64,000 nucleotides of DNA, taken from positions 27,341 through 91,340 of the forward strand of contig JAFGHI010000007.1 of assembly GCA_016930235.1 (NCBI GenBank), given 5' to 3'. The notes under the pieces are model-generated. The model searched no databases. It saw only the letters and a program-made list of their open reading frames with translations, and was not told the DNA's origin. Position 1 is the first letter of the stretch; each line of letters begins with the position of its first letter. This document shows, piece by piece, positions 4,028-63,172 of the stretch. This stretch comes from Candidatus Omnitrophota bacterium (GTDB lineage: Bacteria > Omnitrophota > Omnitrophia > Omnitrophales > Aquincolibacteriaceae). A program made the translations under genes and the position numbers.

Positions 4028-4140
4028 GAGAATCGCCACGTATACGGTAATCCCCCCGAAATAAATCAAGCCAGATCATTCTAACTGACTTTATGTCAAT
4101 AGGTTATGACATTTGATCCTGGAATTATAGGAGGTTTAAG

Positions 4141-4311
4141 ATGCCAGCAATTGTGGATGTTGAGAAATGCAATGGGTGCCAGCAATGTGTCGAGGTTTGT
4201 TCTGTTCAGGCTATTGTCATCGAGAATGACAAAGCAAAGATTACCCCTGAATGCATTGACTGTGCCGCTTGTGTGAGTGTTTGTCCCAACGAAGCCATTT
4301 CGATGGAGTAA
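4141..4311 (+). CDS. 4Fe-4S dicluster ferredoxin (56 aa; absent from the ORF track because it is <60 aa)
   Basis: Translation is MPAIVDVEKCNGCQQCVEVCSVQAIVIENDKAKITPECIDCAACVSVCPNEAISME. It has two CxxCxxCxxxC(P/S) cluster-binding motifs and an AGGAGG RBS at 4129-4134. Confidence 0.7.
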   Translation: MPAIVDVEKCNGCQQCVEVCSVQAIVIENDKAKITPECIDCAACVSVCPNEAISME

Positions 4312-4324
4312 CCTCGTTGAATGA

Positions 4325-4356
4325 GGGGCTTAGAATAAGACGCTATTCTAAGCCCC
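4325..4356 (+). terminator. Perfect 13-bp stem-loop downstream of the ferredoxin gene
   Basis: GGGGCTTAGAATA-N7-TATTCTAAGCCCC. No strong U-tract, so this is a terminator or RNA-stability hairpin. Confidence 0.4.
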
Positions 4357-4507
4357 CGACAATCAAGAGTTATTTCCGGTCCTTCCTTAAAGCAACTGTT
4401 CTCTCAAGTATTGATTTAGATTATTCAAATCCCGCAGATTATAAAAATCATAAATTTAGCCGTTAATTAAGGAATCAAAAAGTTCCTGAAGCGGGGCTGG
4501 TCCATAC

Positions 4508-47899: not shown

Positions 47900-50458
47900 A
47901 TGAAACACGACGAAACACCTTATTCCGCGCTGATTAAGGCCCTGTCCTTTACACTCAAGCAGTTCCGTCTCTATTCAGAGAATCATCCGATCGCCAAGCA
48001 GGCCCTTGAGAGTTTCCAGAAGGAAATCAACGAGTTTCTCAAAAAGAAAGACAAGGTTGTGTTTGGGGCTATGCGCAAACGTCTTGTTGTGGATGGGACC
48101 CTTGTGGGGGAACGGGATATTGCGGCTAATGACTTAGCTAAGGATCTTGACCGCGTCGGGATCGAAGGTTTGATTTTCGAAAAAGGTTTGGACCCTAAAG
48201 AAATCATCGAGTTCATGAAGCTGATGGCGATGCGTGCGAAATCATTGCAGGACAAAGGGGGGTTCCAGAAGTTTTTTGAGAGCAAACAATTTAGCCACAT
48301 TAAGTTATCTCACGGTAAATTCCAGCTGATTGAAGACGGGCAAGTGGTCTTGGACGAATCCCAAGTCGGCGAAGGCACAGGTGGAGAAAGTGGTCCTGGA
48401 GAAGGCGGAGGTCCTGGAGAAGGCGGAGGTTCTGGAGAAGGCACAGGTCCTGGAGAAGGCACAGGTCCTGGAGAAGGCGAAGGTCCTGGAGAAGGCGGAG
48501 GTCTTGGAGAAGGCGAAGGTCCTGGAGAAGGCGGAGGTCTTGGAGAAGGCGAAGGTCCTGGAGAAGGCGGAGGTTCTGGAGAAGGCGGTCAGGGAACCGG
48601 AATTGCCGACGCAGGTCCTGTAACGAGTATTGCGGATATTATTTACCGTCTCCGTGAAGAAAAGGGTGGCGAAACACAGCCTGTCGAAGCGCATTCGGTT
48701 CCGATGGACTATAAAAAGATCGTTGTTCAATTGGAGAAACATCCCCAGGAAGTGGCCCAAGCCGCTTTGGAAAAGGTCGAGGATCCGGTCTTGCTCGAGT
48801 CGATGATTCGCAGGATCATTAATTTTCTTGTCGATGGACTGCTGGCTTATTTAGTGGAGCAGGGTAAGGACATCACAAAGGCCCTTGAACGGCTTGCCAA
48901 GGAGCTTGAAAAGGCCCTTGCCCGTATCGGCGGGGGGAAAGAATTAGAAGACCTCAAACAGCGGATTCCTAAGATCTTTGAGGAGTCGACTGATGAGCTC
49001 CGCATTCGAATGATGGTCAGGACCTACCAATCGAACCCTGACGATAAAAATCGTAATGCCTTAAAGAAGATGGGGCGTAAGCTTTTTAAGGAAGATAAAT
49101 TACGGGATCGGTTGGGGCCCTCGGTTCGTGAGGAACTTGTCCAGGCAGGGATGCCTTCGGAGGATTTCGAGGGTGTTTTTGCGGATATTGAGAAGCGGGC
49201 GGCGAAGAAAAAAAGCCGGGTCATGATTGACGCAGCTGAGCTTGCCGATCTGAAGAAAAAAGCGGCCGCCTTTGAAGCCGGCGGCGGGGACGTTGCGGAA
49301 GGGGACCTTCAATTGCAGGTTAAAAAGCTGCAGCGGGAAAAGAAGATGATCCTGGATCAAAAAGAGCGCGTTGATAATGTGATCCGCAACTTGGCGGAGG
49401 GTGTTCTCGTCGTCGATAAGAACGGCAAGGTTGTGATCATGAATCCTGCGGCGGAAAGGATGCTGGGGGTCAAAGGGGTGGATAAGATCGGTAAACCGGT
49501 GACGGAGGGCCTTAGCGATGAGCATATGGTCGCAATGACGGGGGGCGAGGACCTTCATGACTCCGAAGAACATGTCTCGAAGAAGGTTGAAGTTTTCAGT
49601 CTGAACGACGAGACCCAGAAGGTGTTGAAGGCCAGCACGGCCGTGATCGAGAACGAAGACGGTAAAACCGTCGGTATGGTCTCGGTCCTAAGCGACGTGA
49701 CCCGGCAAAAAGAACTGGAAGAGATGAAAAGTAAGTTTGTCTCCAATGTCTCCCATGAATTGCGGACACCCCTTGTCGCGATTCAAAAATCCCTGTCGGT
49801 GATCTTGAAAAACGAAGTCGGAGATGTCAGCGATGATCAAAAACGGTTTTTGGAAATTGCCGATAGGAATATTGACCGTCTGGGGCGGTTGATTAATGAT
49901 CTCCTGGATGTGTCGAAGCTGGAGGCCGGGAGATTTTCTCTTAATCCCAAAAAGGTTTATGTGCGTGAGCTCGTGATGCATGTGCTCTCAACGATGGAAA
50001 TATGGGCGAAGAATAAAGGGATTGAGCTTAAGAAGGATATTCAGGACGAACACCTTGAAATTGAAGTGGATACCGACCGTTTGACGCAGGTGCTGACCAA
50101 TCTTGTCGGGAATGCGATGAAGTTTACTCCTGAAAAGGGTTCGGTGACCGTAGAGATTAAGAAGGATATTCAGGACCCGGAAGTGTCTCAAGAGCCTTGT
50201 GTGGAAATCGGTGTTCGTGATACCGGGATCGGTATCGCCAAGGAAGATCAAGCCAAGATCTTCGATAAGTTTACCCAGGTGAGTCTTGCCCAGCCTGCCG
50301 GAACGCCCAGTACGGGATTAGGACTGACCATTGCCAAAGAAATTATTGAACTTCACAGCGGGAAAATATGGGTTGAGAGCCAACCCGATCAAGGCAGCCG
50401 TTTTGTTTTTCGCCTTCCCATCCAGTTTAAGCTGCGGGATAAAGAACAAACCTCGTAG
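47900..50458 (+). CDS. Cytoplasmic sensor histidine kinase with PAS domain and an internal (GEGxGP)n repeat linker
   Basis: HisKA H-box SHELRTPL. HATPase_c N/G1/G2 boxes (NLVGNAMKFT, DTGIGI, GTGLGLTI). A PAS-like segment precedes the H-box. No TM helices. Confidence 0.8.
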   Translation: MKHDETPYSALIKALSFTLKQFRLYSENHPIAKQALESFQKEINEFLKKKDKVVFGAMRKRLVVDGTLVGERDIAANDLAKDLDRVGIEGLIFEKGLDPKEIIEFMKLMAMRAKSLQDKGGFQKFFESKQFSHIKLSHGKFQLIEDGQVVLDESQVGEGTGGESGPGEGGGPGEGGGSGEGTGPGEGTGPGEGEGPGEGGGLGEGEGPGEGGGLGEGEGPGEGGGSGEGGQGTGIADAGPVTSIADIIYRLREEKGGETQPVEAHSVPMDYKKIVVQLEKHPQEVAQAALEKVEDPVLLESMIRRIINFLVDGLLAYLVEQGKDITKALERLAKELEKALARIGGGKELEDLKQRIPKIFEESTDELRIRMMVRTYQSNPDDKNRNALKKMGRKLFKEDKLRDRLGPSVREELVQAGMPSEDFEGVFADIEKRAAKKKSRVMIDAAELADLKKKAAAFEAGGGDVAEGDLQLQVKKLQREKKMILDQKERVDNVIRNLAEGVLVVDKNGKVVIMNPAAERMLGVKGVDKIGKPVTEGLSDEHMVAMTGGEDLHDSEEHVSKKVEVFSLNDETQKVLKASTAVIENEDGKTVGMVSVLSDVTRQKELEEMKSKFVSNVSHELRTPLVAIQKSLSVILKNEVGDVSDDQKRFLEIADRNIDRLGRLINDLLDVSKLEAGRFSLNPKKVYVRELVMHVLSTMEIWAKNKGIELKKDIQDEHLEIEVDTDRLTQVLTNLVGNAMKFTPEKGSVTVEIKKDIQDPEVSQEPCVEIGVRDTGIGIAKEDQAKIFDKFTQVSLAQPAGTPSTGLGLTIAKEIIELHSGKIWVESQPDQGSRFVFRLPIQFKLRDKEQTS
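48368..48597 (+). repeat. Tandem 18-nt repeat (GGTCCTGGAGAAGGCGGA-like, ~12.5 copies) encoding (GEGxGP)n inside the histidine kinase gene
   Basis: Direct reading shows the period-18 units varying at 2-3 positions (GGA/ACA/GAA, CCT/CTT/TCT). Confidence 0.85.
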
Positions 50459-50683
50459 GGTCCTTTTTGTAAAGTTTGCTTTTCAAGGGCGTTGTTAACT
50501 ATCCCAAAGTATCGTTTCAACGCTCATAAAATCCGAAATCCGAAACTCGTAGCAAATTCAAATATTTAAATGTCTACAAAAAGGCGAAAAATGCTTTATC
50601 GCTTGTTTTAACGAACATTCGGCTCATTGGAGCATTCGAGTTTTGGAATTGCTTCGAATTCCGGGGTTCCGATTTATGAATAT

Positions 50684-51625
50684 CTAAGAACAGCAGGGAT
50701 TCTTTTTGTCCTGCGTAAGAAGATATTGGCGGACGTAATCGAGGATGCCTTCGCGGGTGGAATATCGGTTTGAAAATCCAATCGTCTTTTTGGTGTGTGT
50801 CATGTCTGCTTGCGTGAAGTTCTGATAGAAATCATAAGGATTATCAAAATAATCCGGTTCGAGATGGGTTCCGAGGGCTTCGTTTAAAGCCTCAATCACT
50901 TCGTTAAAAGAGGTCGGGGTCCCTGTTCCGATGTTCAGAACGGTGTTTTCTTTTGATTCACGCGCCTGGATAGTTGCCTGGACGACGTCTTTGACGTAAA
51001 TAAAGTCTCGTTTTTGTTCCCCGAATTTGAAGACCCGCGGGCGCTTGCCTTGTTTCATCTGACAATAGAGTTGATAAATCATGCTGGCTGCGGGGCCTTT
51101 ATAAAATTCGCCCGGTCCAAAAACATTAAAATACCGAAGTCCGACAACTTTGATTTCATCCTTATATTGGCGGGCCAAGTTATCCATGATCCATTTGGAA
51201 AAACCGTAGATGTTATTGGGCTGGCCGGCATCGGATTCCTTCATGGGTGTGTCCTGAGTCCCGTAGACGGCTGCCGAGGAGGCGTAAATGACGTCGGCTT
51301 TCTTATCACAGGCAAGTTGGAGGATATTGCGGAAACCTTCCACGTTGTCATACATCATCTTTCGCTCGTCCAAGACCGTGGTATCGGTGATCGAAGCGAG
51401 ATGAAAAATAACATCGAGGGGCTTTGCTTCGAATGTCTTAAGCCAGTCTTGATCGGCGACATTACTGGCAAGGACGTCGCCCTTGAAGCCCAGCAGATTC
51501 TTGAAACTGGAGCCTCGGAAATCATCCATAACTGTAATGTTGGTATTGGGATAGCGCTTCTCTAGTTCGAATGCGAGATTCGATCCGATAAAGCCAGAAC
51601 CGCCTGTGACAAGGATGTTTTTCAT
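50684..51625 (-). CDS. hldD: ADP-L-glycero-D-manno-heptose-6-epimerase
   Basis: ILVTGGSGFIGSN, YASSAAVYG, GLRYFNVFGP, KRDFIYVKD, NIGTG and FTQAD are collinear with HldD/RfaD. Start chosen at MKNILVTGG (51625). Confidence 0.75.
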   Translation of the reverse strand: MKNILVTGGSGFIGSNLAFELEKRYPNTNITVMDDFRGSSFKNLLGFKGDVLASNVADQDWLKTFEAKPLDVIFHLASITDTTVLDERKMMYDNVEGFRNILQLACDKKADVIYASSAAVYGTQDTPMKESDAGQPNNIYGFSKWIMDNLARQYKDEIKVVGLRYFNVFGPGEFYKGPAASMIYQLYCQMKQGKRPRVFKFGEQKRDFIYVKDVVQATIQARESKENTVLNIGTGTPTSFNEVIEALNEALGTHLEPDYFDNPYDFYQNFTQADMTHTKKTIGFSNRYSTREGILDYVRQYLLTQDKKNPCCS

Positions 51626-51755
51626 AGGGGCATATGGTATCGGAATTTCTGAAAAAGGCAACTTAAAAAGTTGATAAGACAGAATTTGGGTACCCAAATC
51701 CGGCGGCTCTTAAGGGTTTTGATGAAGAAGAAAGCGGGATAGATTTTCTCCGGCT

Positions 51756-52073
51756 TTGCCGATAAAAAGATTAATGAAAAAGAAAGCCGTTATCCTTCTC
51801 TTCCTATTCGTTTTTCTCCTGGGGGCACCCATGACGAAGTCTGTTTATGCCGATAATGGGCTGATCGTGAGAGGCGTTGCGCGCACCCTTCTTTCAGTCG
51901 TGGAGATTCCAAAGGCAATAATCTCCCACTCGCAACGGGTTATTTTCCCGGTGGGGATTGTAACGGGTGCTCTGGAAGGTACTTTCCGTACGGTCATGGG
52001 GACCTTGGCGGGGACTTTGGACATTGCGCAGGGGGCTGCCCCTTACGCGAAATATATGCTGTTTTTTATCTAG
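51756..52073 (+). CDS. Small secreted protein, possibly an exosortase-system-associated TIGR04073-like family member
   Basis: Signal peptide. LIVRGVARTLLSVVEIPKAI resembles the RG..N...G..EIPK motif of that family. This is a weak call. Confidence 0.3.
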   Translation: MPIKRLMKKKAVILLFLFVFLLGAPMTKSVYADNGLIVRGVARTLLSVVEIPKAIISHSQRVIFPVGIVTGALEGTFRTVMGTLAGTLDIAQGAAPYAKYMLFFI

Positions 52074-52518
52074 CCGGGCCGACCTTCTTTAGATTTTTCC
52101 GATCACTTTTTAAAGCTTGAGCAAGTGTCTTGTAAGTCTTTCCGGTTTCGGGGTCTTTCTCTTCGGGGGCTATTTCTTCAAGCGGGATCATGATGAAGGC
52201 CTGTTGCTGATATCCGGTTTGCGGGAGCAAATCGATGTCAATCGGGCGGGGGGCATATTTATCCTGCGGGTTATGTTCCCGTCCGAGTTCTTTTTCAATT
52301 TCCTTGAGTCCTTGGCGGATTTCGTTTTGGGGCAAATCGGATTGAATCAGGATGGCGAGATTCCAGAAGACAGGTTGATCCGGCGGGCCGATGGGGTTGG
52401 CCTCATAGATCGAGGATTGTTTAAGGATATCAAATTTTCGGCCCAAAAGTTTGAGGGCTTGGGGGATGTTATTCCCGGGCGAAATATTGGAGCCGAGGCT
52501 CAAATAGAATCGGGTCAT
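52066..52518 (-). CDS. folK: 2-amino-4-hydroxy-6-hydroxymethyldihydropteridine pyrophosphokinase (HPPK)
   Basis: MTRFYLSLGSNI...PQALKLL...IYEANPIGPPDQP.FWN...RPIDIDLL is the HPPK pattern. Its start overlaps the folB stop (ATGA). Confidence 0.7.
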   Translation of the reverse strand: MTRFYLSLGSNISPGNNIPQALKLLGRKFDILKQSSIYEANPIGPPDQPVFWNLAILIQSDLPQNEIRQGLKEIEKELGREHNPQDKYAPRPIDIDLLPQTGYQQQAFIMIPLEEIAPEEKDPETGKTYKTLAQALKSDRKNLKKVGPAR

Positions 52519-52871
52519 TTCAAGTGCCGGGTTATTTGAACTCCGACCGTTTTTGAATTTCGCAGGGCCCCGGGTTTTGAAACGCGCAAGGTGATCTCCG
52601 GGAGTTTGAACTTCTTCAAGATCGAGGCGGCCAATTTTTCGGCCAATGTCTCGATCAGGAAGAACTCGCTTTTGGAAGTGAAATCCAGGATATGTTTCGC
52701 AATGCTTTTGTAATCGGTGGCATCTTGAATCCGGTCGCGTTTGGCCGCCTTTCTGATATTCGCCGGGAACTCGAGGTCCAGGACAATTTTCTGCAGAATT
52801 TTCCGTTCCCATTGAAAAATACCGATGCGGCATTGCGTTGTCAGTTCACGGATGAAGATCTTATCGTTCAT
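52515..52871 (-). CDS. folB: Dihydroneopterin aldolase
   Basis: IFIRELTTQCRIGIFQWERKILQKIVLDLEF is the FolB N-terminal pattern. 118 aa, upstream of folK. Confidence 0.65.
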   Translation of the reverse strand: MNDKIFIRELTTQCRIGIFQWERKILQKIVLDLEFPANIRKAAKRDRIQDATDYKSIAKHILDFTSKSEFFLIETLAEKLAASILKKFKLPEITLRVSKPGALRNSKTVGVQITRHLK

Positions 52872-53003
52872 GGCATAAGTCTATCATTTTTCAGGATTTA
52901 TTGTCTATTGGGACATCTCGGGTGGAAACACTTGTTTTCTTTTCGGGGTTCTTTTCGTAGAATGTCCGTTCCTGCATAATCCTAAAATCGAAAAGGCCCA
53001 TTA

Positions 53004-54113
53004 ATGTCAGAAGAGACACTTCTAAAAACAGAAAGAATGGCTCGCAGGATTGAGCCTTTGTGCCCCGCTTATGGGATTTGCGGGGGCTGTGCTTATCAAG
53101 AGATCCCATATCCTGAAGAGCTTGGGGCCAAGGAAAACCGTGTCCATAAGCTTTTTCGGGACGGGTTGGGTGTTGGGGCGGAAGTTCTTAAGCCGATACA
53201 GGCTTCCCCCAAGCCTTATTATTACCGGAATCGAGTTGATCTGACTTTGAGGCGTCTGAAATCCGGTGAAATCATTATGGGTTTTCAACATGAGAATTCT
53301 CATCAGGTCGTCAGAGTGGATTCCTGCGATCTTGCTATGCCGGTGATTTCAGATGCCTTCCCCGGGATCCAAGAAGAGGCTTCCAGGAAACTTCCCGGTG
53401 ATTACCGGACGGCCAATCTTGTCATTAAAAGCGGGGATGACGGACGTGTCCTTTGGGGCGGGATCGGGAGACATTCCTGCCGGCTGGAAGAAAAAGATTA
53501 CCTGTGGGCGGAGATCAAAGGCAAGAGGTTCTTTTACTCGCTCGATACGTTTTTTCAGGCGAATTTGACGATCCTTCCCAAATTAATGGAGGTCCTTGAA
53601 GAATACCTGCCCGGCGGCGACAATGCCCTTCTATATGATCTTTATGCGGGGGTTGGATTTTTTGGTCTTTATTTCGCGTCCCGGTTTCGTCGTGTCTTTT
53701 TGATCGAAGAAAGTGATACGTCTTGTGATTTGATGAAGTTCAATCTCAGATATCACGGGTTGCCTCATGTTGAGGCGATCAGGGGAAAGGTTGAGCATCT
53801 CTTCCCTGGTTTGCTTTCGCAATCCCAGGGTCGGCATGTGGCGATGATTGATCCCCCCAGAAGGGGACTAAGTGATGAGACCCGAGCGATGCTGGCCAAG
53901 GAAAAGCGGCTGGAGGCACTCGTTTACTTGTCCTGTAATCCGGAAACATTGGTTCGGGACCTTAAAGATTTTCTTGAAGAGGGGTGGAGCCTGAAAGTTG
54001 TCATTCCCTTTGATTTTTTCCCCAGGACAAAACATATTGAAACCTTGACCCTTTTGCACCAGGAGCCCACCGCTGGCGCCCACCGCGTAGGTGGCCTTTT
54101 CAATCATTCCTAA
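53004..54113 (+). CDS. RumA/RlmD-like 23S rRNA (uracil-5)-methyltransferase with Fe-S cysteines; 3' end fused to a REP element
   Basis: CPAYGICGGCAYQ cluster. SAM motif DLYAGVGFFGL. C-terminal FPRTKHIETLTLLHQ. The last 16 codons (EPTAGAHRVGGLFNHS) are encoded by the REP inverted repeat. Confidence 0.6.
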   Translation: MSEETLLKTERMARRIEPLCPAYGICGGCAYQEIPYPEELGAKENRVHKLFRDGLGVGAEVLKPIQASPKPYYYRNRVDLTLRRLKSGEIIMGFQHENSHQVVRVDSCDLAMPVISDAFPGIQEEASRKLPGDYRTANLVIKSGDDGRVLWGGIGRHSCRLEEKDYLWAEIKGKRFFYSLDTFFQANLTILPKLMEVLEEYLPGGDNALLYDLYAGVGFFGLYFASRFRRVFLIEESDTSCDLMKFNLRYHGLPHVEAIRGKVEHLFPGLLSQSQGRHVAMIDPPRRGLSDETRAMLAKEKRLEALVYLSCNPETLVRDLKDFLEEGWSLKVVIPFDFFPRTKHIETLTLLHQEPTAGAHRVGGLFNHS

Positions 54114-54152
54114 CGTTCGGTTTGGTCGAAAAGGCCACCTACGCGGTGGGCG
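54065..54152. repeat. REP doublet with a 25-bp perfect inverted repeat (CGCCCACCGCGTAGGTGGCCTTTTC / GAAAAGGCCACCTACGCGGTGGGCG) and a 26-nt loop
   Basis: Both arms read directly from the sequence. The left arm is preceded by GCCCACCGCTGGCGCCCACCGCG, which recurs at 61926-61949 and inverted at 63128-63150. Confidence 0.8.
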
Positions 54153-54167
54153 AAGCGGTTCGAAGTG

Positions 54168-54782
54168 ATGAGAAATGATATTTCGGCGTTATTTAACGCT
54201 TATGAGTGGTTCATCCAAAGCGAAGGACCGTTATCCTTTGAGCAGTTATTTGGGAACAATCATCCTGTGGAGGTCGAGATCGGCTGCGGCAAGGGGAGGT
54301 TCTTAAGTGCTTACGCCGGCGAAGCGTGCGAGATCAATTTCCTGGGTATCGACCGCGTAGGGAAATGGATGAAAAGGGCCCAGGCCAGGATTGAAAAGGG
54401 GAAAGTTGAAAACCTGAAATTCCTGCGTGCGGATGCGCGTGTTTTCTTGGAGAAGGTTCCGCACGGGAGCGTCAGTGTTTTCCATATTTATTTTCCGGAC
54501 CCCTGGCCCAAGAAGCGGCATCATAAAAGGCGCTTGGTGACGAAGGAATTTCTGGCAGTACTTCATGACCGATTGGTCAGTGAGGGAAAGATTAGGATCG
54601 CCACCGATAACAAGCCCTATTATGAAAGTATGCGGGAGGCGGTTGCTTGGACTCCATCTTGCTGGAGCCAGATCCGGGAAGATGAAAACAAGAGGCCGTT
54701 CTGTGAAGCCTTCAAAACGAGTTATGAACTTAAATATGAGGGTGAAGGAAAACCGCTTTATTACCTGGAGCTTCAAAAATGA
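54168..54782 (+). CDS. trmB: tRNA (guanine46-N7)-methyltransferase
   Basis: VEIGCGKGRFL SAM motif. FPDPWPKKRHHKRR is the TrmB signature. Confidence 0.8.
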   Translation: MRNDISALFNAYEWFIQSEGPLSFEQLFGNNHPVEVEIGCGKGRFLSAYAGEACEINFLGIDRVGKWMKRAQARIEKGKVENLKFLRADARVFLEKVPHGSVSVFHIYFPDPWPKKRHHKRRLVTKEFLAVLHDRLVSEGKIRIATDNKPYYESMREAVAWTPSCWSQIREDENKRPFCEAFKTSYELKYEGEGKPLYYLELQK

Positions 54783-55528
54783 GGATTGCGAAAGCGTTAG
54801 CGCTGGCGGGCATTGATTCAAGAAGAAAATGCGAGAGGCATATTACGAACGGGGCCGTGGTCGTCAATGGCGAAGTGGTCAGGGATCTGGGCCGCCAGGT
54901 GAATCCCGAAGAGGATTCGATTGCCTTTCGCGGGAGGATTCTGTATTTTGAAAAACCTGTTTATTATGTCCTTTTTAAACCCGCCGGATATACTACCACC
55001 GCTCATGATATTCATGCGGATAAGACGGTTTATGAATTGCTTCCAAGGCGGTTGATCAAAGGGTCCCGGCAACCGAAACCGTCGAGGACCCGCGTTTTTC
55101 CCGTGGGACGACTCGATAAATATTCCACGGGACTTCTCCTTTTCACCAATGATGGTGAGACGGCCAATCGCCTGATGCATCCCCGCTACGGGATTTCAAA
55201 ATGGTATCAAGTCAAGTTAGACCGCCCTTTCGATCCCCGCGACGGGAAAAGGCTTCTCCAGGGAGTTTCCTTGAAAGAAGGTTTGGCGAAGATTGAGAAA
55301 TTCCATCCCTTATCGAAACGCGTGATGCGTGTCCTTCTTCGAGAGGGGAAGAACAGGGAAATACGGCGTATATTCGGAAGACTCAATTACGAAGTGCTTG
55401 ACCTTTGCCGGATGAGCTTTGGCCCTTTAACGCTCGGAGGCCTTTCTCTGGGGCAGGGGCGTTTCCTTAACTCGAATGAAATCAAAGAGTTAAGGAAAGT
55501 GAGCGTTCCCAAGACACCCGCCGGATAA
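54779..55528 (+). CDS. RsuA/RluB-family pseudouridine synthase (S4 domain + catalytic domain)
   Basis: N-terminal S4-like MRIAKALALAGIDSRRKCERHITNGAVVVNGEVV. The catalytic Asp is in VGRLDKYSTGLLLFTNDGE. Confidence 0.7.
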   Translation: MRIAKALALAGIDSRRKCERHITNGAVVVNGEVVRDLGRQVNPEEDSIAFRGRILYFEKPVYYVLFKPAGYTTTAHDIHADKTVYELLPRRLIKGSRQPKPSRTRVFPVGRLDKYSTGLLLFTNDGETANRLMHPRYGISKWYQVKLDRPFDPRDGKRLLQGVSLKEGLAKIEKFHPLSKRVMRVLLREGKNREIRRIFGRLNYEVLDLCRMSFGPLTLGGLSLGQGRFLNSNEIKELRKVSVPKTPAG

Positions 55529-55571
55529 ATTCAAATTTTAGCCCTTGCTTTATTAATTCCACCACTGTATT

Positions 55572-55603
55572 ATTCATAATATGAATAGTTAAGCAAATTA
55601 ACT
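55572..55603 (+). promoter_or_regulatory. Two adjacent palindromes upstream of the marR-like gene (candidate MarR operator)
   Basis: ATTCATAaTATGAAT (7-1-7) at 55572-55586 and AGTTAAgcaaaTTAACT (6-5-6) at 55587-55603. They lie 20-50 nt upstream of ATG 55622. Confidence 0.5.
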
Positions 55604-55621
55604 ATTAGGTTTCTTAACTTA

Positions 55622-56092
55622 ATGGGGGTCCCCATGAAGGAAAAAGAAAAGCTCATCCAGTCTTTCCGGGAAATGCATTTGGTGATGTCCCGTCTCTTCA
55701 ACCAATTGCTCGGAGAAGTTGATCTGACCTTTCCTCAATACGTTCTGCTCGGTCATTTGTCAACCGCCGGAAGTATGACGATGACAGAGGCAAGTGAAAA
55801 ACTTTATATCTCAAAACCCGCTGTGACGAGTCTGGTCGATAAGCTGGCGGAAGAAAAATACCTGGCGAGGAAACCGCACCCGGAAGACAGGCGTGCCTAC
55901 CACCTCACAATCCTGCAAAAGGGTCAAGAGACAGTTAAAAAGTTTCAGGAGACTTTTATCCATAATCTTATGCTCAAAACATTGGAAGCGTTCAAAACGG
56001 AAGAACGGGAAAGCCTTCAGCGGTTCATGGATTCCGTTTTGCAGAATGCCGATGAAATCTTGGCAAACCCGATTAGAAATAGGAGGCGATGA
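55622..56092 (+). CDS. MarR-family transcriptional regulator
   Basis: The winged-helix region LTFPQYVLLGHLSTAGSMTMTEASEKLYISKPAVTSLVDKLAEEKYLARKPHPEDRRAYHLTILQKG is typical MarR. Its stop overlaps the tolC-like start (ATGA). Confidence 0.7.
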   Translation: MGVPMKEKEKLIQSFREMHLVMSRLFNQLLGEVDLTFPQYVLLGHLSTAGSMTMTEASEKLYISKPAVTSLVDKLAEEKYLARKPHPEDRRAYHLTILQKGQETVKKFQETFIHNLMLKTLEAFKTEERESLQRFMDSVLQNADEILANPIRNRRR

Positions 56093-57630
56093 TGAAACGA
56101 TTAGCCCTCGGATTCATCTTTTTTATCTTGTTAACTATTCATTCGTCCGGGAATATTTTGGAAGCGAAAAGGGAGGTTCCGCTTCCCCAAGACCTCACCG
56201 TCCCGGCCGATCTTTTGAAACGCGGGGAGATGCTCTCCATCGATGAAGCGACGCGCTTGGCCGTTGCTGATAATCTGGATATCCAAATGGTCCGTCTCGA
56301 AAGAGAAGGCACCCAAAAAGATACCCAGATTGCCGACGGTGTTTACGACACGCAAATGGAGCTTGCCGGGACCTATTCTCAGGACAAGGCTGAGCGGGCA
56401 AGCCTTGTGTCGGGCTCCCGGGAACTTGAGGGGATTGTCCAGGTGGGTTTCCAGAAGAAGATTCCCTTGGGGACCGACGTGGGCGTTTCCGTGGGGACGA
56501 TTCGAAGATCCAGTTCAAGCAGTTTTACGACGCTTGACCGGAATTATTCCAGTTTTATGGAAGTGTCCGTGACCCAGCCGCTTTTAAGGAATTTCTTTGG
56601 GTACATTGACCGTAAACAAATCGAACAGGTGAAGATCAATGTGAAAAAGTTCGATTATGAAACCCTTGATCGCATTGAGAGTTCCGTCATCGGGATTAGG
56701 AATCAATATTGGGATTTGGTGTTTGCGTACGAAGATTTGAAAGCGAAACTCGATGCGCTGGGCAAAGCACAGGATTTTTTCCGGATCACCAAAGAAAAAC
56801 TTGATATCGGAACGGCTGAAGAGCCCGATGTCTATGCCGCGGAGGCGAATGTCCGTAACCGTGTGGTCCAGGCTTTGGAAGCGGAAACCCAATTGAACAC
56901 GCATTCTTATTCGTTAAAGGTTCTCCTGGGGGGGATCCAAGTGGATCTTATCCTTCCCTCTGACCGGCCGGAATTTAAAGTGATTGAAGTCCAGTATGAA
57001 GCGGCTTTGAGTGAAGCGATGGAGCAAAGGCGCGATCTTAAACAAATGGAGCTTTCCATTGAAGACCAGGTCATCGAAAGAAAGATCAAGTGGAATGAAA
57101 GGCTTCCCGAGCTTGAATTTGCCGGGACCTGGGCGTCCACGAGTCTTGACCGTGAAATGGCCTCCAGCCAGGGTGAGGTTTTCAGCGGCAATCACCCTCA
57201 GTATTTCGGAGGCGTGACGATGACATCCAACCTTGAACTTCGCGCCGAACGGGGAAGTTACAGCCAGGCGGAGTATGAACTCGCACGGCTTCGCCGTGAG
57301 CTTGAAAAATTGAAGCTCGTGATCGGTCAGGAACTCGACAAGAGCTACCGGACATTAAAATTGGCAGAAGAGCGGGTTAGGCAGACACGCGAGATCGAGA
57401 ATCTTCAGAGGAAGAAACTGACCGAAGAAGAAAAGGACTTTAATGTCGGACGCTCGGATTCCAAAACGATTATTGATTTTCAAGATGATGTGATTAAGGC
57501 CGAAACCGAAGCGATCCTGGCTTTAGTGGATTACGTCAAGGCTGTGGATGGTTTTTACCGGTCCAAACACACCCTGCTGGAGTGGGTCGGCGTGACCGAT
57601 CGGCAAGCGGTGGAAGGGGAAAAGAAGTAA
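56089..57630 (+). CDS. TolC-family outer-membrane efflux protein
   Basis: Signal peptide plus the two-repeat OEP architecture. 513 aa. TAATG overlap with the RND gene. Confidence 0.65.
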   Translation: MMKRLALGFIFFILLTIHSSGNILEAKREVPLPQDLTVPADLLKRGEMLSIDEATRLAVADNLDIQMVRLEREGTQKDTQIADGVYDTQMELAGTYSQDKAERASLVSGSRELEGIVQVGFQKKIPLGTDVGVSVGTIRRSSSSSFTTLDRNYSSFMEVSVTQPLLRNFFGYIDRKQIEQVKINVKKFDYETLDRIESSVIGIRNQYWDLVFAYEDLKAKLDALGKAQDFFRITKEKLDIGTAEEPDVYAAEANVRNRVVQALEAETQLNTHSYSLKVLLGGIQVDLILPSDRPEFKVIEVQYEAALSEAMEQRRDLKQMELSIEDQVIERKIKWNERLPELEFAGTWASTSLDREMASSQGEVFSGNHPQYFGGVTMTSNLELRAERGSYSQAEYELARLRRELEKLKLVIGQELDKSYRTLKLAEERVRQTREIENLQRKKLTEEEKDFNVGRSDSKTIIDFQDDVIKAETEAILALVDYVKAVDGFYRSKHTLLEWVGVTDRQAVEGEKK

Positions 57631-60600
57631 TGAGAAAACTGATTCAATATTGCGTCAACCATTCACTCTTTGTGAATCTGCTTTCGGTCTTTCTTTTTGT
57701 TGCCGGAATTATCTGTTTGATTGCTCTCAGACGCGAGGCCTTTCCCAATATCAGCTGGGATATCGTGGTGGTACAAACCGTCTATTTCGGTGCGCCTCCG
57801 GAAGAAATCGAAAAGTTGATCACCATTGAGCTTGAAGAAGAACTCAAAGAGGTGAACGGGATTGACGAGATGATCTCGGTTTCTTCGGAGAACCGTTCCG
57901 TGATTACTTTGAAGTTGGATCCTGACGAGAAGAACAAACCCAAGATTGTGAATGATATCCAGCGGGCGGTGGACCGGGTCAAAGACCTCCCCGAAGATGC
58001 CGAGGACCCCGTCGTCGAAGAAGTCGAAAGCAAGGACATGCCGGTGATTAATGTCTCGCTTTCCGGGAAAATGTCGGAACACGAACTTCAGAAGATCGCC
58101 AGAAAACTCGAGCTTGAGTTGTTGGACCTTCCGGATGTGGCGCGCATTGACCGCACCGGCTGGCGGGACCGGGAAATATGGGTCGAAGTCGATCCGAAAA
58201 AAGTTGAAGATTATTACCTGTCCTTGTCGGACATTATCCTCTCTTTAAGCAATAAGAATCTCAATATCCCCGGAGGAACTCTGGACACGCCGAAGGGCGA
58301 ATATTTGATCCGCACGATCGGTGAATTTGGTACTGCCGCAGAGATCGAAAAAGTGATTATCCGTGCTAATGACCAGGGCAATTGGATTCAAGTGCAAGAT
58401 GTCGCGCAGGTTCAAGATACCTTTGAAGACGATGATTTGATTGAAAAGACCCATGGGGAGCTTGCGATTACCCTCACGGTGGTTAAAAAAGAAAAAGGGG
58501 ATATCATCCGTCTTGTGGAGGATATCAAGACGAAAGTCGAGGACTTCAAAAAAGATGCGCCGGAAGGACTTCGTGTCAGTTACTTTGATGATTTTTCGTA
58601 TTACGTTAAACGCCGTTTAAATGTGCTCACCAATAATGGATTTATTGGTGTGACCTTGGTCGTGGTTGCCTTATTTATCTTCCTGACGCGGACCGTCGCG
58701 ATCATGACGGCGATCGGCATCCCCATCGCGATTTTGACGGCCTTTTTTGTGATGTATATTTCCGGTTTTACCATCAACCTGATCACGATGTTTGCGCTCA
58801 TTATGGTCTTGGGAATGGTGGTGGATGATGCCATCATTATTTCCGAAAATGTTTACCGGCACATGGAAAAAGGCAAGGCGCCGCGGGAGGCTGCGGTGAT
58901 CGGGACAAGTGAAGTTGCCGTCCCGGTGATTTCGACAGTCCTTACGACCATCGTTGCTTTTGTCCCGCTTTTTTTCATGAGCGGTATTATGGGGAAATTT
59001 ATTTGGGCGATGCCGATGGTGGTCATTATTGCCTTAAGCGCTTCGCTCTTTGAGGCGCTCTTCATCCTTCCCAGCCACTTGGCGGATTTCGGACGGGTCT
59101 CGACCTCTGAGCACAAGAAGAAAGTCGAGGTCTGGATGCAGCAATTTCAGGAGTTTTACCTTTCAGGCCTGAGGTGGGTGATCAAACAACGTTATCTCTT
59201 TATCGGGAGTGCGTTCAGTTTGTTTTTTCTGGTCGTCATTTTTAATCTTTTAGGGTTGCATTTTGTCCTTTTCCCCCAGGGGTTGATCGAGGAGTTTTTT
59301 ATCCGCTTGAAGGCCCCGATCGAAACCTCGATTCAGGAAATGGAAAAGAAAATGAACCAGGTCGATCAACTGGTGGCCAAGCTTCCTGACAATGAATTGG
59401 ATAATTTCGTCACGCGGGTCGGGATGCAGATGACCGACCATAGCGGACTTGATAATGTCCGGGGGTCGCATCTGGGTCAAATTCACATCTTTTTGACACC
59501 TGAAACGACGCACGGAAGGCGTAAGGCCGATGAGATTATTGCTTGGCTGCGAAAAGAGATGAAAGGGATGGAGAATTTATTCGAAGAGATTACCTTTGAG
59601 AAGGTTCGGGCCGGGCCGCCGGTAGGAAAGCCCGTTGAAATCCGGATCCGAGGGGATGAGTTTTCCGTTCTCGAAGAGGTCGCTGAGAAGGTGAAGGCAC
59701 GATTACATAAAATTGAGGGGGTCGAGGACATTGAAGATGACTATAGTGTCGGGAAGCCTGAGATCCGGATCAATGTCGATGAGGAAGCGGCGACCAAGGC
59801 TTATCTCAGTATTCGGGATATTTCGACAGCGGTCCGGAATGCGATGGATGGCGGGATTGCAACCAAGATCCGCAAAACGGATGAAGAAATCGATGTGATT
59901 GTCCGCTACCCTGCGTCGGAGACCAATGGCGAAGAGGTCTTGGAATCGATACGGATCCCCAACCGGTACGGGAATCTGGTGGCCCTCAACAAGGTTGCGA
60001 ACTTGGAAAAAAAGCAGGGGATCAATACGATCAAACATTTTGACCGTAAGCGCCTGGTGAATGTGACCGCGAGCGTGAATGAGGAGAAGGTGACCCCGGT
60101 TGAGATTGAAAAGATCATGACCCGTTACATCAAGGAAGATATCATGCCCCATTATTCAGGCGTGAACGTTAGTTTCGGGGGTGAGCAGGAGGAAACCCGA
60201 AAATCCCAGGCGGATTTTATTCGCGCGATCATCTTGGCGGTCTTCCTTATCTTCATCATTTTGGCGGCCAATTTTAATTCCGTCATTCAGCCGATTGTGG
60301 TGATGATGGCGATCCCTTTTGGGATTACCGGAGTTTTTCTGGCCTTTTTTCTTCACGGGATGGCGCTCAGTTTTATGGCGCGCCTTGGAATGATCGGGTT
60401 AAGCGGAGTGGTGGTGAATGATGCGATTGTTCTGGTGAGTTTTATCAATCAATTGCGACGCGAAGGGATGAGTTCGATTGATGCCGTTTTTGAGGCGGGT
60501 CGCTTAAGGCTGCGGCCGGTCCTTTTAACGACGGTTACAACGATAGCAGGATTGCTTCCCGTGGCTTACGGGATCGGCGGCAATGATCCCTTTATCCGTC

Positions 60601-60800
60601 CGATGGCGCTGGCGGTAGGCTGGGGACTTTTCTTTGGGACGGTTCTCACGCTTCTTGTGATCCCTTGTATTTATGTTGTGATGGCCGATGATTTTTCGGG
60701 GTGGTGCCGGCATTGCGGGGAATATGTGGCGAAGACGCTCTGGCCGCGGTTGAAGCATTTCATCTCGGCCGGTTTTTTGTCGATAATGAAAAAATCATGA
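57630..60800 (+). CDS. RND-superfamily efflux permease (AcrB/CzcA family)
   Basis: 1057 aa. 12 TM helices with two large periplasmic loops. The segment LITMFALIMVLGMVVDDAIIISENVYRH is a conserved RND TM4 block. Confidence 0.8.
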   Translation: MRKLIQYCVNHSLFVNLLSVFLFVAGIICLIALRREAFPNISWDIVVVQTVYFGAPPEEIEKLITIELEEELKEVNGIDEMISVSSENRSVITLKLDPDEKNKPKIVNDIQRAVDRVKDLPEDAEDPVVEEVESKDMPVINVSLSGKMSEHELQKIARKLELELLDLPDVARIDRTGWRDREIWVEVDPKKVEDYYLSLSDIILSLSNKNLNIPGGTLDTPKGEYLIRTIGEFGTAAEIEKVIIRANDQGNWIQVQDVAQVQDTFEDDDLIEKTHGELAITLTVVKKEKGDIIRLVEDIKTKVEDFKKDAPEGLRVSYFDDFSYYVKRRLNVLTNNGFIGVTLVVVALFIFLTRTVAIMTAIGIPIAILTAFFVMYISGFTINLITMFALIMVLGMVVDDAIIISENVYRHMEKGKAPREAAVIGTSEVAVPVISTVLTTIVAFVPLFFMSGIMGKFIWAMPMVVIIALSASLFEALFILPSHLADFGRVSTSEHKKKVEVWMQQFQEFYLSGLRWVIKQRYLFIGSAFSLFFLVVIFNLLGLHFVLFPQGLIEEFFIRLKAPIETSIQEMEKKMNQVDQLVAKLPDNELDNFVTRVGMQMTDHSGLDNVRGSHLGQIHIFLTPETTHGRRKADEIIAWLRKEMKGMENLFEEITFEKVRAGPPVGKPVEIRIRGDEFSVLEEVAEKVKARLHKIEGVEDIEDDYSVGKPEIRINVDEEAATKAYLSIRDISTAVRNAMDGGIATKIRKTDEEIDVIVRYPASETNGEEVLESIRIPNRYGNLVALNKVANLEKKQGINTIKHFDRKRLVNVTASVNEEKVTPVEIEKIMTRYIKEDIMPHYSGVNVSFGGEQEETRKSQADFIRAIILAVFLIFIILAANFNSVIQPIVVMMAIPFGITGVFLAFFLHGMALSFMARLGMIGLSGVVVNDAIVLVSFINQLRREGMSSIDAVFEAGRLRLRPVLLTTVTTIAGLLPVAYGIGGNDPFIRPMALAVGWGLFFGTVLTLLVIPCIYVVMADDFSGWCRHCGEYVAKTLWPRLKHFISAGFLSIMKKS

Positions 60801-61906
60801 GAAAAATTTTCATCGGGACGATTATTCTTGCTTCAACGCTTGTGAGCGTTCCTTCAGGATGGGCTGCGGCCAAGAAACCGGAGATTCCGAAGGCCCCCAA
60901 TTTTTATTGGGGTGGCATTTGGCTCAATACGCCCGCTTTGACACGCCGGTTTTTTGAAGGGAAGGTCACGCTGGTTTATTTTTGGGATTATGCGTCGATC
61001 AATGCCATCCGGGATATCGGGACACTCCAAAAATGGCTTGAGGCTTACCGTTCTTTTGGTTTTGAAATCTTATGGGTGCATGCGCCCTCTTATGAATTCG
61101 GCAAGCAAAGGGAAAACGTGGAGGAGGTTCTCAAGCGGTTTGGCATTACGGGGCCCGTACTTTTGGACAATGATTTTAAGTTATGGGATGCCTATAAGGT
61201 CCGTTCCTGGCCGACCAAGGTGCTTGTGAATCCGCAGACGGCCATCATTCATACACAGGTCGGAGAAGGGAATTATATGGATATTGAGACAAGGATCCGC
61301 GAAGAATTGCGGGATAAGCAAGTGAGTGTGATGCTGCCGACGCCTGTTTTTGCGCGGGAGCCCATCCGGTACAGTTTGGATGAGTGCGGTGCGATTATGA
61401 CGGAGACCCCGATCGGGTATGACCGGTTTAAATGGTGGGGCGGGCAGATTGCCAATAAAAGGTGGGTCGATCCCGACGGGACCTTGCTTTTCAAGGACCG
61501 GGGAGATCGGGTGGAGCGCGGGTTTTTCGCCGAAGGGCTTTGGACCAATGGTGCTGAAGGGTTCATCCACGCGCGCGAAACGGAGCATCTGACGGATTAT
61601 TTGGGGCTCCTTTACCAATCCTTTGAAGTCTATACGGTGGTTCATCATACCCGGGCCGGTGAGACCGCGCGTATCTATGTCACCCGCGACGGCGAACCTG
61701 TCCCCGAGGAGATGCGGGGGAGTGACCTGAAGGAAGATGCCCGCGGCAGCACCTATTTTCTAATGCAGGAACCTCGTCTTTACTACTTAATCACCCAAGA
61801 GGATGAAGAGTGGCATGAGATCAAATTGTGGACCCGTTCGGAAGGTGTTTCGGTGAATGCTTTCTCATTTTCAAACCGCTGCTTGAGCGACTTCGCCCAC
61901 CTTTGA
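60797..61906 (+). CDS. Secreted thioredoxin-fold (TlpA/redoxin-like) protein lacking the CxxC active site, with C-terminal unknown domain
   Basis: Signal peptide. VTLVYFWDYASINAIRDI aligns with the redoxin active-site region, but the cysteines are replaced. ATGA overlap with the RND stop. Confidence 0.4.
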   Translation: MRKIFIGTIILASTLVSVPSGWAAAKKPEIPKAPNFYWGGIWLNTPALTRRFFEGKVTLVYFWDYASINAIRDIGTLQKWLEAYRSFGFEILWVHAPSYEFGKQRENVEEVLKRFGITGPVLLDNDFKLWDAYKVRSWPTKVLVNPQTAIIHTQVGEGNYMDIETRIREELRDKQVSVMLPTPVFAREPIRYSLDECGAIMTETPIGYDRFKWWGGQIANKRWVDPDGTLLFKDRGDRVERGFFAEGLWTNGAEGFIHARETEHLTDYLGLLYQSFEVYTVVHHTRAGETARIYVTRDGEPVPEEMRGSDLKEDARGSTYFLMQEPRLYYLITQEDEEWHEIKLWTRSEGVSVNAFSFSNRCLSDFAHL

Positions 61907-62648
61907 GCCCGTCGGCCTCCGGCCTCGCCCACCGCTGGCGCCCACCGCGGCGGTGTCCTTTTTTTTCAGCAAAGATGACCTTTTTTATCTTGGCAAGTTC
62001 CCGCTGGGCCGAAATTCGGTTTTCGACAAAGGATTGGTATCGTTTGGGCTCGATCTTAAGGACATCCTTGAATTCACAAATTGCGTCTTCAACCGGGATG
62101 TTTTCGTGATAAAGATATTCCAGATAAGATGAAGCGGGCCAATCCCCGGGATGATTAACAAGACGTGCGGTCACAGGGTTAAGATGCAGATAGCGCGTGA
62201 GGTGGAGTAGCTGTTCGTCCTTTGTCACATGGACCCATTTGTAACGGCTTTGCCAGAGAGGTCCTTTGCGATTGTGAACGAGATTAAAATATCGGGTATA
62301 GCTGTTAAGGATATCGTTCATAAATTTCGCGATAGCTCGGTTGGAATGTGGGCTCAAAATCAAATGAAGATGAGTCGGCATGAGACAATAGGCGATTATT
62401 TGAATATTCTTTTTATGGTCAGCAAAGTGATGCGAGAAGACTTTGTGGAAGCCGAACGTTTGGACCTCTTTAAGTTCGAGGTATTTTGAGAAGCGATAAG
62501 CGTGATGATTGTATTGGAAAAACCGTATGAGCTGAAGCATCCTTAGATAATCGCTGTTGTGTTGGAAGATTTCAAATCCCGCGATGGATTTAGTATACAC
62601 ATGGTAATTTTCTCCCGCGGTCAGGGGATGGATAGGTTCTTGAATCAT
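61821..62648 (-). mobile_element. REP-associated tyrosine transposase (RAYT; IS200/IS605 TnpA-like Y1 HuH transposase)
   Basis: HuH motif IIAYCLMPTHLHLIL. Catalytic Tyr region GPLWQSRYKWVHV. It is flanked by inverted REP copies. The track ORF tail (GHRRGGRQRWARPEADG...) reads through the REP, so the true stop may be earlier. Confidence 0.65.
61905..61968. repeat. REP element copy (GCCCACCGCTGGCGCCCACCGCGGCGGTGTCCTTTTTTTT) at the 3' side of the RAYT gene
   Basis: Shares a 23-nt identical core with the copy at 54066-54088. It is preceded by a GGCCTCCGGCC palindrome. Confidence 0.75.
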
Positions 62649-62950
62649 AGCTTTTGAAGTTCCTTTCCGGCGCTTCGATCGATTTTATATTTTGCGACTC
62701 TGAGCGCATCCGGGAAGTAAACCCAGCATTCTTGAATGCCGGGATCTTTGCAGACCACCACGAGTTTTTTCTCTAACGAGAAACTTTGATGATCCTGCAA
62801 ATGCTCGGCCCGGATATCCCGGTGGCGGAGTTTCCGTATCAGGAAATGCCTTTCTCTTTCTAAAAGCTGGCAAGCGATTTCGAGAAAATCGTTGACGATG
62901 TCCTCCCAAACGTGATGGGTTGGGGCCTGGCTTTGGATACTTGTTGTCAT
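62645..62950 (-). CDS. Hypothetical 101-aa protein encoded immediately upstream of, and overlapping by 4 nt, the RAYT gene
   Basis: ORF only; no family recognised. A palindromic site lies ~100 bp upstream. Confidence 0.3.
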   Translation of the reverse strand: MTTSIQSQAPTHHVWEDIVNDFLEIACQLLERERHFLIRKLRHRDIRAEHLQDHQSFSLEKKLVVVCKDPGIQECWVYFPDALRVAKYKIDRSAGKELQKL

Positions 62951-63048
62951 TTTCTTTCTCCTTTTGAAGAAGTGTCAGAAGCTTACCGGGTAAAATAAAA
63001 AAAGGGAAGGACAGAACAGAAAAAAGTTTCGGGGTATCTACTAATAAT

Positions 63049-63077
63049 GGATATGAATCTACTAATAGTAGATATCC
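63049..63077. promoter_or_regulatory. Palindrome GGATATgaATCTACTAaTAGTAGATATCC with an adjacent direct half-site repeat
   Basis: Perfect 8-1-8 core ATCTACTAaTAGTAGAT at 63057-63073 with flanking GGATAT/ATATCC. An extra ATCTACTAATAAT lies at 63036-63048. Confidence 0.45.
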
Positions 63078-63116
63078 TGAGCGGAAATAAGAAGTTTACA
63101 AATGTAAGGAAAGTAA

Positions 63117-63172
63117 GAAAAGGCCACCGCCGCGGTGGGCGCTAGCGGTGGTCGGGCCTGCCGGAGGCAGGC
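63117..63172. repeat. REP element copy in inverted orientation relative to 61926-61966, followed by a GCCTGCCggagGCAGGC hairpin
   Basis: GAAAAGGCCACCGCCGCGGTGGGCGCTAGCGGTGGTCG is ~95% identical to the reverse complement of the 61926-61966 copy. Confidence 0.75.

Follow-up and report, generated by a model that had tools for sequence, protein, structure and literature searches.

A probable REPIN insertion in the last codons of an rlmD-like gene, at its overlap with trmB, in a Candidatus Omnitrophota genome

REP doublets, their transposases and the Omnitrophota locus

Systems in which doublets of repetitive extragenic palindromes (REPs), known as REP doublets forming hairpins (REPINs), are associated with REP-associated tyrosine transposases (RAYTs) have been described in Pseudomonas fluorescens SBW25 and other Proteobacteria (Bertels & Rainey 2011, PMC3116915; Bertels et al. 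2017, PMC5581495). A hairpin element is described here in a 64,000-nt stretch of a contig from a metagenome-assembled genome (MAG) of Candidatus Omnitrophota; this whole stretch is the window to which positions and, unless stated otherwise, copy counts refer. The element is most probably a REPIN of a RAYT-associated REP family that was inserted in the last codons of an rlmD-like methyltransferase gene, at the overlap between its stop codon and the start of trmB (Table 1). No description of such an element in Omnitrophota was found in a literature search; three papers mention both, none of them in its title or abstract.

As with SBW25-type REPINs, the element is composed of two inverted REP units that can form a long hairpin (~70-110 nt), the REP flanks a single HUH/Tyr transposase gene, and the element is non-autonomous and lacks a terminal duplication. 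However, the host is an Omnitrophota MAG, the transposase (~220 aa) is distant from the studied RAYTs and falls below the NCBIfam cut-off, the copy number is apparently low, with one REPIN in 64 kb, and the REPIN lies inside a coding sequence. In SBW25, 14 of 1,067 REP 16-mers overlap genes (PMC3116915), and in the window codons 355-369 of the rlmD-like gene lie in the element, whose location is therefore not extragenic. This gene-internal site argues against the element being a typical REPIN, but not against its being a REPIN.

Correia, ERIC and RUP/BOX-type miniature elements carry terminal inverted repeats, produce target-site duplications and depend on DDE transposases. The Omnitrophota element resembles them in being a small, palindromic and non-autonomous sequence that alters a C-terminus and adds a hairpin to an operon transcript, but it has neither a duplication at its borders (CAGGAG on the left, TCGAAG on the right) nor a DDE partner. 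In work attributed to Liang, Rudd and Deutscher (Mol Cell 2015), REPs near stop codons of E. coli genes reportedly lower translation via ribosome stalling and tmRNA. In the Omnitrophota gene, a stable hairpin likewise stands at the very end of the reading frame, where interference with terminating ribosomes would be expected; however, whereas the E. coli REPs lie within ~15 nt downstream of the stop codon, the stop is here inside the loop and the left arm is translated, as far as the sequence alone tells.

The REP and bacterial interspersed mosaic elements of E. coli, with their transposase TnpA_REP (4ER8), share with the Omnitrophota REP the form of a small imperfect palindrome and provide the closest structural-sequence relative of its transposase, in which the HUH motif and the Tyr are conserved at low overall identity (E = 9.5e-5). 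Moreover, the REPIN arms carry the tetranucleotide GTAG, as do the REPs with a GTAG tag described by Di Nocera et al. 2013 (PMC3733652), but at the border between the loop and the 3' stem of a small hairpin and not 5' of the hairpin, and the copies that flank the RAYT gene have GGCG instead of GTAG.

Anatomy of the hairpin and its REP family

The element is built on a perfect inverted repeat, the arms of which are complementary at 25 of 25 positions. They are separated by a 26-nt loop, inside which the minimum-free-energy fold places a few weak pairs, and they are extended in the RNA fold by an outer stem of 6 bp more, where ACCGCT (54069-54074) pairs with AGCGGT (54154-54159) across a 2-nt/1-nt internal loop. 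The 136-nt RNA of 54040-54175 folds at -76.3 kcal/mol, as compared with -42.4 +/- 3.7 kcal/mol in shuffles (z = -9.1), and the element alone (RNA of 54069-54159) folds at -72.6 kcal/mol. In addition, the 24-mer arm has three matches in the window at <=3 mismatches (0.00 expected from 100 shuffles) and the 15-nt REP core CCACCGCGNNGGTGG is found at four loci (0.07 expected). Since the copy counts far exceed expectation and the fold is far more stable than that of shuffled sequences, the inverted repeat is not a product of chance. Two inverted REP units, a short spacer and the possibility of one long hairpin constitute the structure of a REPIN. The right unit differs from the left by a 1-nt indel in its outer part. 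Both arms read CGCGTAGGTGG, with GTAG at 54087-54090 and 54139-54142, and each has a small hairpin of its own, CCACC-GCGTA-GGTGG; the RAYT-flanking copies of the REP have a longer stem, CCACCGC...GCGGTGG, and the GC-to-TA change in the REPIN arms costs the single-REP hairpin two base pairs. When units are folded singly, the REPIN arms give weak structures (z = -0.6 to -1.1), and a clear one is obtained only with the copy beyond the 5' end of the RAYT gene (copy B; single-stranded DNA fold of -19.5 kcal/mol, z = -4.0), beside which a second hairpin, GCCTGCC-TCC-GGCAGGC, is found.

When the element was compared with the window by short-word BLAST, exactly two further copies of the 35-36-nt unit CCACCGCTRGCGCCCACCGCGNNGGTGKCCTTTT were returned. 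These copies, A and B, are mutually inverted and flank a Y1-transposase open reading frame (ORF) located 7.7-9.0 kb from the REPIN. Because the 35-nt unit recurs in inverted orientation around a gene for a TnpA_REP-like transposase, the element is a REP doublet of a REP/RAYT-type system; the sequence-only reading, which had described at 54040-54160 a REP doublet with perfect 25-bp arms and a REP core recurring around a RAYT gene 8 kb away, was thus right on both counts. The transposase matches Pfam PF01797 (Y1_Tnp) with 39.6 bits (cut-off 23), and among PDB entries its closest match is TnpA_REP of E. coli, with MPTHLHLIL (HLH) aligned to LPEHMHCIW in the HUH motif and RYLHLNPV aligned to DY115IYINPV around the catalytic Tyr. 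Its protein family comprises 1,855 matches of ~220 aa, from Omnitrophota where named. Two RAYT homologs fetched from other Omnitrophota (L056 and L057) have flanking REP-like hairpins of their own, with a like architecture and a shared CGTAGG motif; the hairpin of L056 reads CCCCACTTCGTAGGTGGGG, and L057 has a 40-nt palindrome containing GACC-TCGTA-GGTC.

Other kinds of element were considered as well. An integron attC site and a DDE-type miniature inverted-repeat transposable element were discarded, the flanks showing no target-site duplication on reading, although no dedicated search for one was made; likewise, no integrase or DDE transposase was seen among the genes examined, again with no dedicated search. 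An intrinsic terminator, that is, a GC-rich hairpin followed by a U-tract, was rejected, since the full stem is directly 5' of GAAGCGGTTCGAAGTGATG and has no U-tract after it; a terminator-like flag fell solely on the small single hairpin of the left REP followed by CCTTTTC, a site inside the big stem. Two ORFs on the minus strand across the element (53868-54107 and 53924-54103) were dismissed as a side effect of a GC-rich palindrome that contains no stops.

REP sequence also lengthens the RAYT ORF, which has 275 aa as compared with ~220 aa in its homologs, of which ~40 inspected C-termini end in ...AKIKKLILD. Its last ~48 codons extend across REP copy A and share 86 nt with a convergent thioredoxin-like gene (60701-61906). 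An A8/T8 run (61959-61966) lies at the junction of the extension, and none of the three frames has a stop within the REP. Copy A together with the T8 resembles an intrinsic terminator for the plus-strand gene that ends at 61906, so this REP may double as a terminator. On the other side, a 101-aa ORF (62645-62950, minus strand) overlaps the start of the RAYT gene by 4 nt; it matches no Pfam or NCBIfam family, is also called as a gene in a contig of a second assembly (L052), and has no comparable gene beside the RAYT homologs in L056 and L057. The L056 locus also contains, at 3309-4691, a pair of bAvd and reverse-transcriptase genes, a module like those of diversity-generating retroelements and unrelated to the REPIN. 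Across the whole window (1-64000), GC skew is positive in all 2-kb bins and most long ORFs lie on the plus strand, which is consistent with a single replichore arm.

Table 1. Positions in the window of the REPIN, its related REP copies and the genes discussed
Feature	Position	Strand	Remarks
rlmD-like RNA uracil-C5 methyltransferase ORF	53004-54113	+	369 aa; ORF list, Pfam PF05958
AGGAG, candidate native trmB Shine-Dalgarno	54061-54065	+	suggested by sequence and reconstruction
Inserted REPIN (REP doublet), probable	54066-54159		94 nt, edges uncertain by ~3 nt; inverted repeat and absence in relatives
Symmetric REPIN core	54069-54159		91 nt
Left REP unit	54066-54101	+	holds arm 54077-54101; encodes P355 to F366
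REPIN loop/spacer	54102-54127	+	26 nt; supplies codons N-H-S and stop TAA 54111-54113
Right REP unit	54128-54159	- (inverted)	holds arm 54128-54152
Displaced native 3' end of rlmD-like gene, as read from sequence	54160-54168	+	TCG AAG TGA (S K stop), no longer in frame
trmB, tRNA (guanine46-N7) methyltransferase	54165-54782	+	start GTG 54165 or ATG 54168
Pseudouridine synthase (RsuA/RluB/RluF type)	54779-55528	+	start overlaps trmB stop by 4 nt
RAYT-like HUH/Tyr transposase	61821-62648	-	275 aa as read; Pfam PF01797, 4ER8 match
REP copy A	61927-61962	+	33/36 identical to left REP unit; 3' of RAYT gene; T8 run 61959-61966 follows
REP copy B	63117-63151	-	32/35 identical to left REP unit; 5' of RAYT gene

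The rlmD-like/trmB junction with and without the element

The insertion is supported by five loci of relatives, which encode four distinct rlmD-like proteins, one of them shared by two loci: L026 (GCA_030698625.1), L027 (GCA_016196555.1), L028, L053 and L054 (GCA_964373045.1). The gene order folK-folB (on the other strand), rlmD-like gene, trmB and pseudouridine-synthase gene is common to all five, and in every one of them the stop codon of the rlmD-like gene overlaps the ATG of trmB by 4 nt (ATGA), with no DNA between the two genes. They are therefore five empty orthologous sites, in relatives whose proteins are 50-55% identical. Directly 3' of the right arm, the window has TCG AAG TGA TGA, the first TGA of which (54166-54168) overlaps the GTG of trmB at 54165 (GTGA). 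When the 94 nt 54066-54159, a segment delimited by its likeness to the REP copies elsewhere in the window, are deleted, CAC CAG GAG is joined to TCG AAG TGA, which gives a protein ending in ...LLHQESK (...KHIETLTLLHQESK), with the overlap with the trmB GTG restored; deletion of the 91-nt core (54069-54159) leads to the identical frame and stop (TGA 54166). The corresponding end in L026 is CAC CAA GAG TCA TGA, that is, ...LCHQES and a stop, with the ATGA overlap. The unique flanks of the insertion are ...CACCAGGAG on the left and TCGAAGTGATG on the right. Because the last two sense codons and the stop persist directly 3' of the element, out of frame, the event is read from the sequence as an insertion two codons before the native stop, which displaced the native 3' end; the replacement that had been supposed at first is not supported. 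In some Omnitrophota, the rlmD-like gene and trmB are fused into one gene for a protein of 509-550 aa (P0054, P0077 and P0120), and such fusions fit with a fragile junction of 4-nt overlap.

REP-type hairpins impede 3' exonucleases. RNase R and PNPase act on REP-containing mRNAs (PMC12320835). These properties, together with the great stability of the hairpin and the terminator-like flag on the single left REP and its CCTTTTC, would be compatible with a regulatory hairpin that evolved locally, as a terminator, attenuator or RNA-stability element, and is not mobile. However, such an origin is very unlikely, with the 35-nt unit found also at two sites around a transposase gene, no U-tract after the full stem, genes that overlap in the relatives and leave no room for a regulator, and an Rfam scan of the whole window in which no family was matched.

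The affected gene ends in ...IETLTLLHQ-EPTAGAHRVGGLFNHS and a stop, i.e., ...IETLTLLHQEPTAGAHRVGGLFNHS, and its product is safely placed in the TrmA/RlmC/RlmD family. The Pfam PF05958 match (2e-21) stops at residue 353 (Q), which corresponds to profile position 356 of 357, whereas TIGR00479 (rumA) gives 180.9 bits against a cut-off of 183.55, with only the C-terminal part of the profile matched (369 aa vs. a 432-position model). The protein is 100% identical to a Candidatus Omnitrophica database entry (P0001) named 'class I SAM-dependent RNA methyltransferase', and its next-best homologs are 50-55% identical and belong to Omnitrophota in all cases where they are named. Beyond HQ there are 16 extra codons, all of which had been ascribed to the left arm up to a TAA in the loop. 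The location of the stop is confirmed, and 12 codons (P355 to F366) do come from the left REP; nevertheless, E354 is probably native, and the last three codons (NHS) and the stop are provided by the loop, so that it is residues 355-369 that the inserted element (left REP and part of the loop) encodes. Measured from the conserved motif H[ILV]E..L, the tail is 18 aa long, as compared with 5 aa in the reconstruction and with a median length of 4 aa (90th percentile, 8 aa) in 116 non-fused homologs, only two of which reach 18 aa. This comparison, together with the absence of the insert from the loci of all five relatives, bears out the proposal that the C-terminal extension is lineage-specific.

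An AlphaFold2 model of the protein, built on 69 homologs, has a mean pLDDT (predicted local distance difference test) of 93, a last beta-strand at 346-353, and values of 76 for residues 351-360 and 45 for residues 361-369, the pLDDT being under 50 throughout 360-369. Since the last strand ends at 353 and the pLDDT of the tail is low, the new 15-residue tail PTAGAHRVGGLFNHS is predicted to lie outside the fold and to be disordered. The present C-terminus is thus -HQEPTAGAHRVGGLFNHS, vs. -HQESK in the reconstruction. A palindrome-encoded C-terminal tail, of 25 aa, is also present in a homolog from another Omnitrophota (P0032; L058, 2216-2285), where the palindromes are CCAGGAAGGCACC/GGTGCCTTCCTGG and GGCGCC/GGCGCC and no trmB follows the gene; this locus adds another example of an rlmD-like gene whose 3' end has taken up a hairpin.

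A second, independent assembly, consisting of Logan contigs of the run SRR13394437, includes three contigs that are 100% identical to the window. One of them (L059) covers 50457-54094 and stops in the left arm, another (L055) begins in the right arm and covers 54131-59076, with identity over 4946 nt, and the third (L052) covers 59059-63146 and stops in REP copy B. An assembly artefact, such as a fold-back or chimeric join at the palindrome, might be suspected in a MAG, even more so as the contigs of the second assembly stop at 54094 and resume only at 54131, and the intervening 36 nt (54095-54130), which include the TAA stop, are in neither L059 nor L055 and come from the MAG contig alone. However, both junctions between unique and repeated sequence (CAGGAG/CCCACC... 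and ...AGCGGT/TCGAAGTGATG) are matched base for base in the Logan contigs, the genes on either side are the neighbours expected from synteny and are correctly oriented, and the inversion of flanking sequence that a fold-back would cause is not seen, which makes an artefact extremely improbable. Look-ups of the exact products found no match for the 369-aa methyltransferase or the 205-aa TrmB, but did match neighbouring genes; these misses are probably due to the break of the second assembly inside the REPIN. The break positions depend on assembler behaviour and give only a hint of the element edges. Similarly, the fact that the Logan contigs break inside REP units at 54094, 54131 and 63146 is only a hint of further identical copies, of at least 30 nt, elsewhere in the genome or sample. 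Among GTDB representative genomes the REP pattern CCCACCGCGNNGGTGKCCTTT had 25 single matches, and among JGI metagenomes it had 23, two collections neither of which contains the source MAG; they come from unrelated taxa, none extends past 21-31 nt of the 36-nt unit, and their number is at chance level.

Several observations weigh against a RAYT-mediated REPIN insertion. The empty sites come from distant relatives alone, no close relative with an empty site being present in the databases, and the match to HQES rests on one relative, which is 51% identical. The edges of the element are uncertain by ~3 nt, and restoration of the frame has a prior chance of one in three. Moreover, the transposase scores 66.5 bits against NCBIfam NF047646 (REP_Tyr_transpos), under the cut-off of 80, which indicates a divergent transposase, and the RAYT-flanking copies read CGCGGCGGTGG, with GGCG (61948-61951 and 63128-63131) in place of GTAG, so the action of this RAYT on the REPIN variant is presumed. 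In the 64 kb there are four REP units, namely the doublet and the two RAYT-flanking copies, so a genome-wide REPIN population is conjectural. The insertion had also been called recent, but the nearest homologs, only ~55% identical, are too distant to date it, and perfect arms would also be expected from selection or homogenisation of the hairpin.

Probable consequences for trmB and for the operon

The gene downstream of the REPIN is well supported as trmB (Pfam PF02390, 6.8e-40; TIGR00091, 143.7 bits, cut-off 112.65, with a profile that begins at aa 22) and starts 6 nt past the outer stem, in a series of tightly packed downstream genes. No promoter-like site was found between the hairpin and trmB. 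Because there is no U-tract and no downstream promoter-like site, and the trmB and pseudouridine-synthase genes are packed, the hairpin is internal to an operon of the rlmD-like, trmB and pseudouridine-synthase genes; it had been described as terminal to the mRNA, which does not agree with a gene beginning 6 nt beyond its stem. In place of the former stop/start overlap there is now a gap of 51 nt (54114-54164), in which the right half of the stem lies.

In the favoured explanation, the REPIN would have landed where the rlmD-like stop originally overlapped the trmB start. The reading frame would since then cross the GC-rich, stop-free left REP as far as the TAA in the loop, -SK being exchanged for the 15-residue tail, while the native stop and the 4-nt overlap would survive 94 nt downstream. 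Coupling of trmB to the rlmD-like gene by termination-reinitiation would be lost, because the stop/start overlap is now out of frame and 94 nt away. The probable Shine-Dalgarno (SD) sequence of trmB, AGGAG, would also have been split from its start codon, from which it is separated by 5 nt in the reconstruction and by ~99 nt in the present linear sequence. GGAGG-like motifs are found upstream of many genes in the window, and none in the 22 nt that now precede trmB; nevertheless, an SD-like motif is missing in front of the overlapping ATG at four of the five relatives' loci, which speaks against AGGAG as an SD sequence, and it may be just Gln-Glu codons. Moreover, the operon mRNA would have gained an internal hairpin of ~31 bp and ~-73 kcal/mol, the stem of which ribosomes would have to melt to reach the stop in the loop. 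Its perfect duplex of 25 bp would also have the length that an RNase III substrate requires. Mobilisation could have been performed by this RAYT on single-stranded DNA, as by TnpA_REP in E. coli. By the best estimate, the insertion is tolerated and neutral or mildly deleterious, and it uncouples and probably lowers trmB translation; effects of the REPIN on RNA stability or on the translation of trmB are presumed from its structure and position.

The hairpin could also have been co-opted, which would agree with the insertion and give it a function as well. The folded REPIN would loop out, and at the base of its stem the trmB start would again have AGGAG at a usable distance, as a structure-bridged ribosome-binding site. 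Initiation of trmB would in that case be governed by the state of the stem, closed (with no ribosome finishing the rlmD-like ORF) or open. The geometry is suggestive, as AGGAG stands 3 nt 5' of the outer stem and the GTG 6 nt 3' of it, and trmB, unlike many genes of the window, has no other SD-like motif upstream, while its ORF is intact and full-length with a strong family match. The arms are also perfect over 25 bp despite the indel in the outer parts, but any young or homogenised REPIN would have perfect arms. A short hairpin between the SD and the start codon is known from gene 38 of phage T4; however, a rigid stem of 91 nt in this place far exceeds that precedent, and the lack of an SD-like motif at four of the five relatives' loci makes termination-reinitiation the more likely ancestral mechanism. 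Co-option is therefore considered unlikely. The same low confidence applies to the regulatory scheme that would follow from it, in which a self-extruding REPIN gates trmB through the melting of the left arm by ribosomes and the two genes form a structure-dependent, possibly anti-correlated pair; if this rather improbable scheme were true, the insertion would have turned a termination-reinitiation couple into a structure-dependent gene pair. As a weaker addition, precise excision mediated by the RAYT would restore the ancestral overlap, making the present state reversible.

With insertion of a RAYT-associated REPIN as the preferred reading, the locus belongs to a known type, in which a REPIN is paired with a RAYT-like transposase, and the understanding of such elements is unchanged by it. 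For annotation, ORF ends that enter GC-rich palindromes should be regarded as read-through into a repeat and not as native ends, which applies here to both the methyltransferase and the transposase. The rlmD-like gene would provide a natural example of a REPIN in a coding region, in which a C-terminus has been rewritten, the native stop has been left downstream as a fossil, and a coupled gene pair has been broken. Moreover, the findings indicate that REP/RAYT-type systems with GTAG hairpins are present in the uncultured phylum Omnitrophota and thus beyond the Proteobacteria, the group on which studies of these systems have been made.

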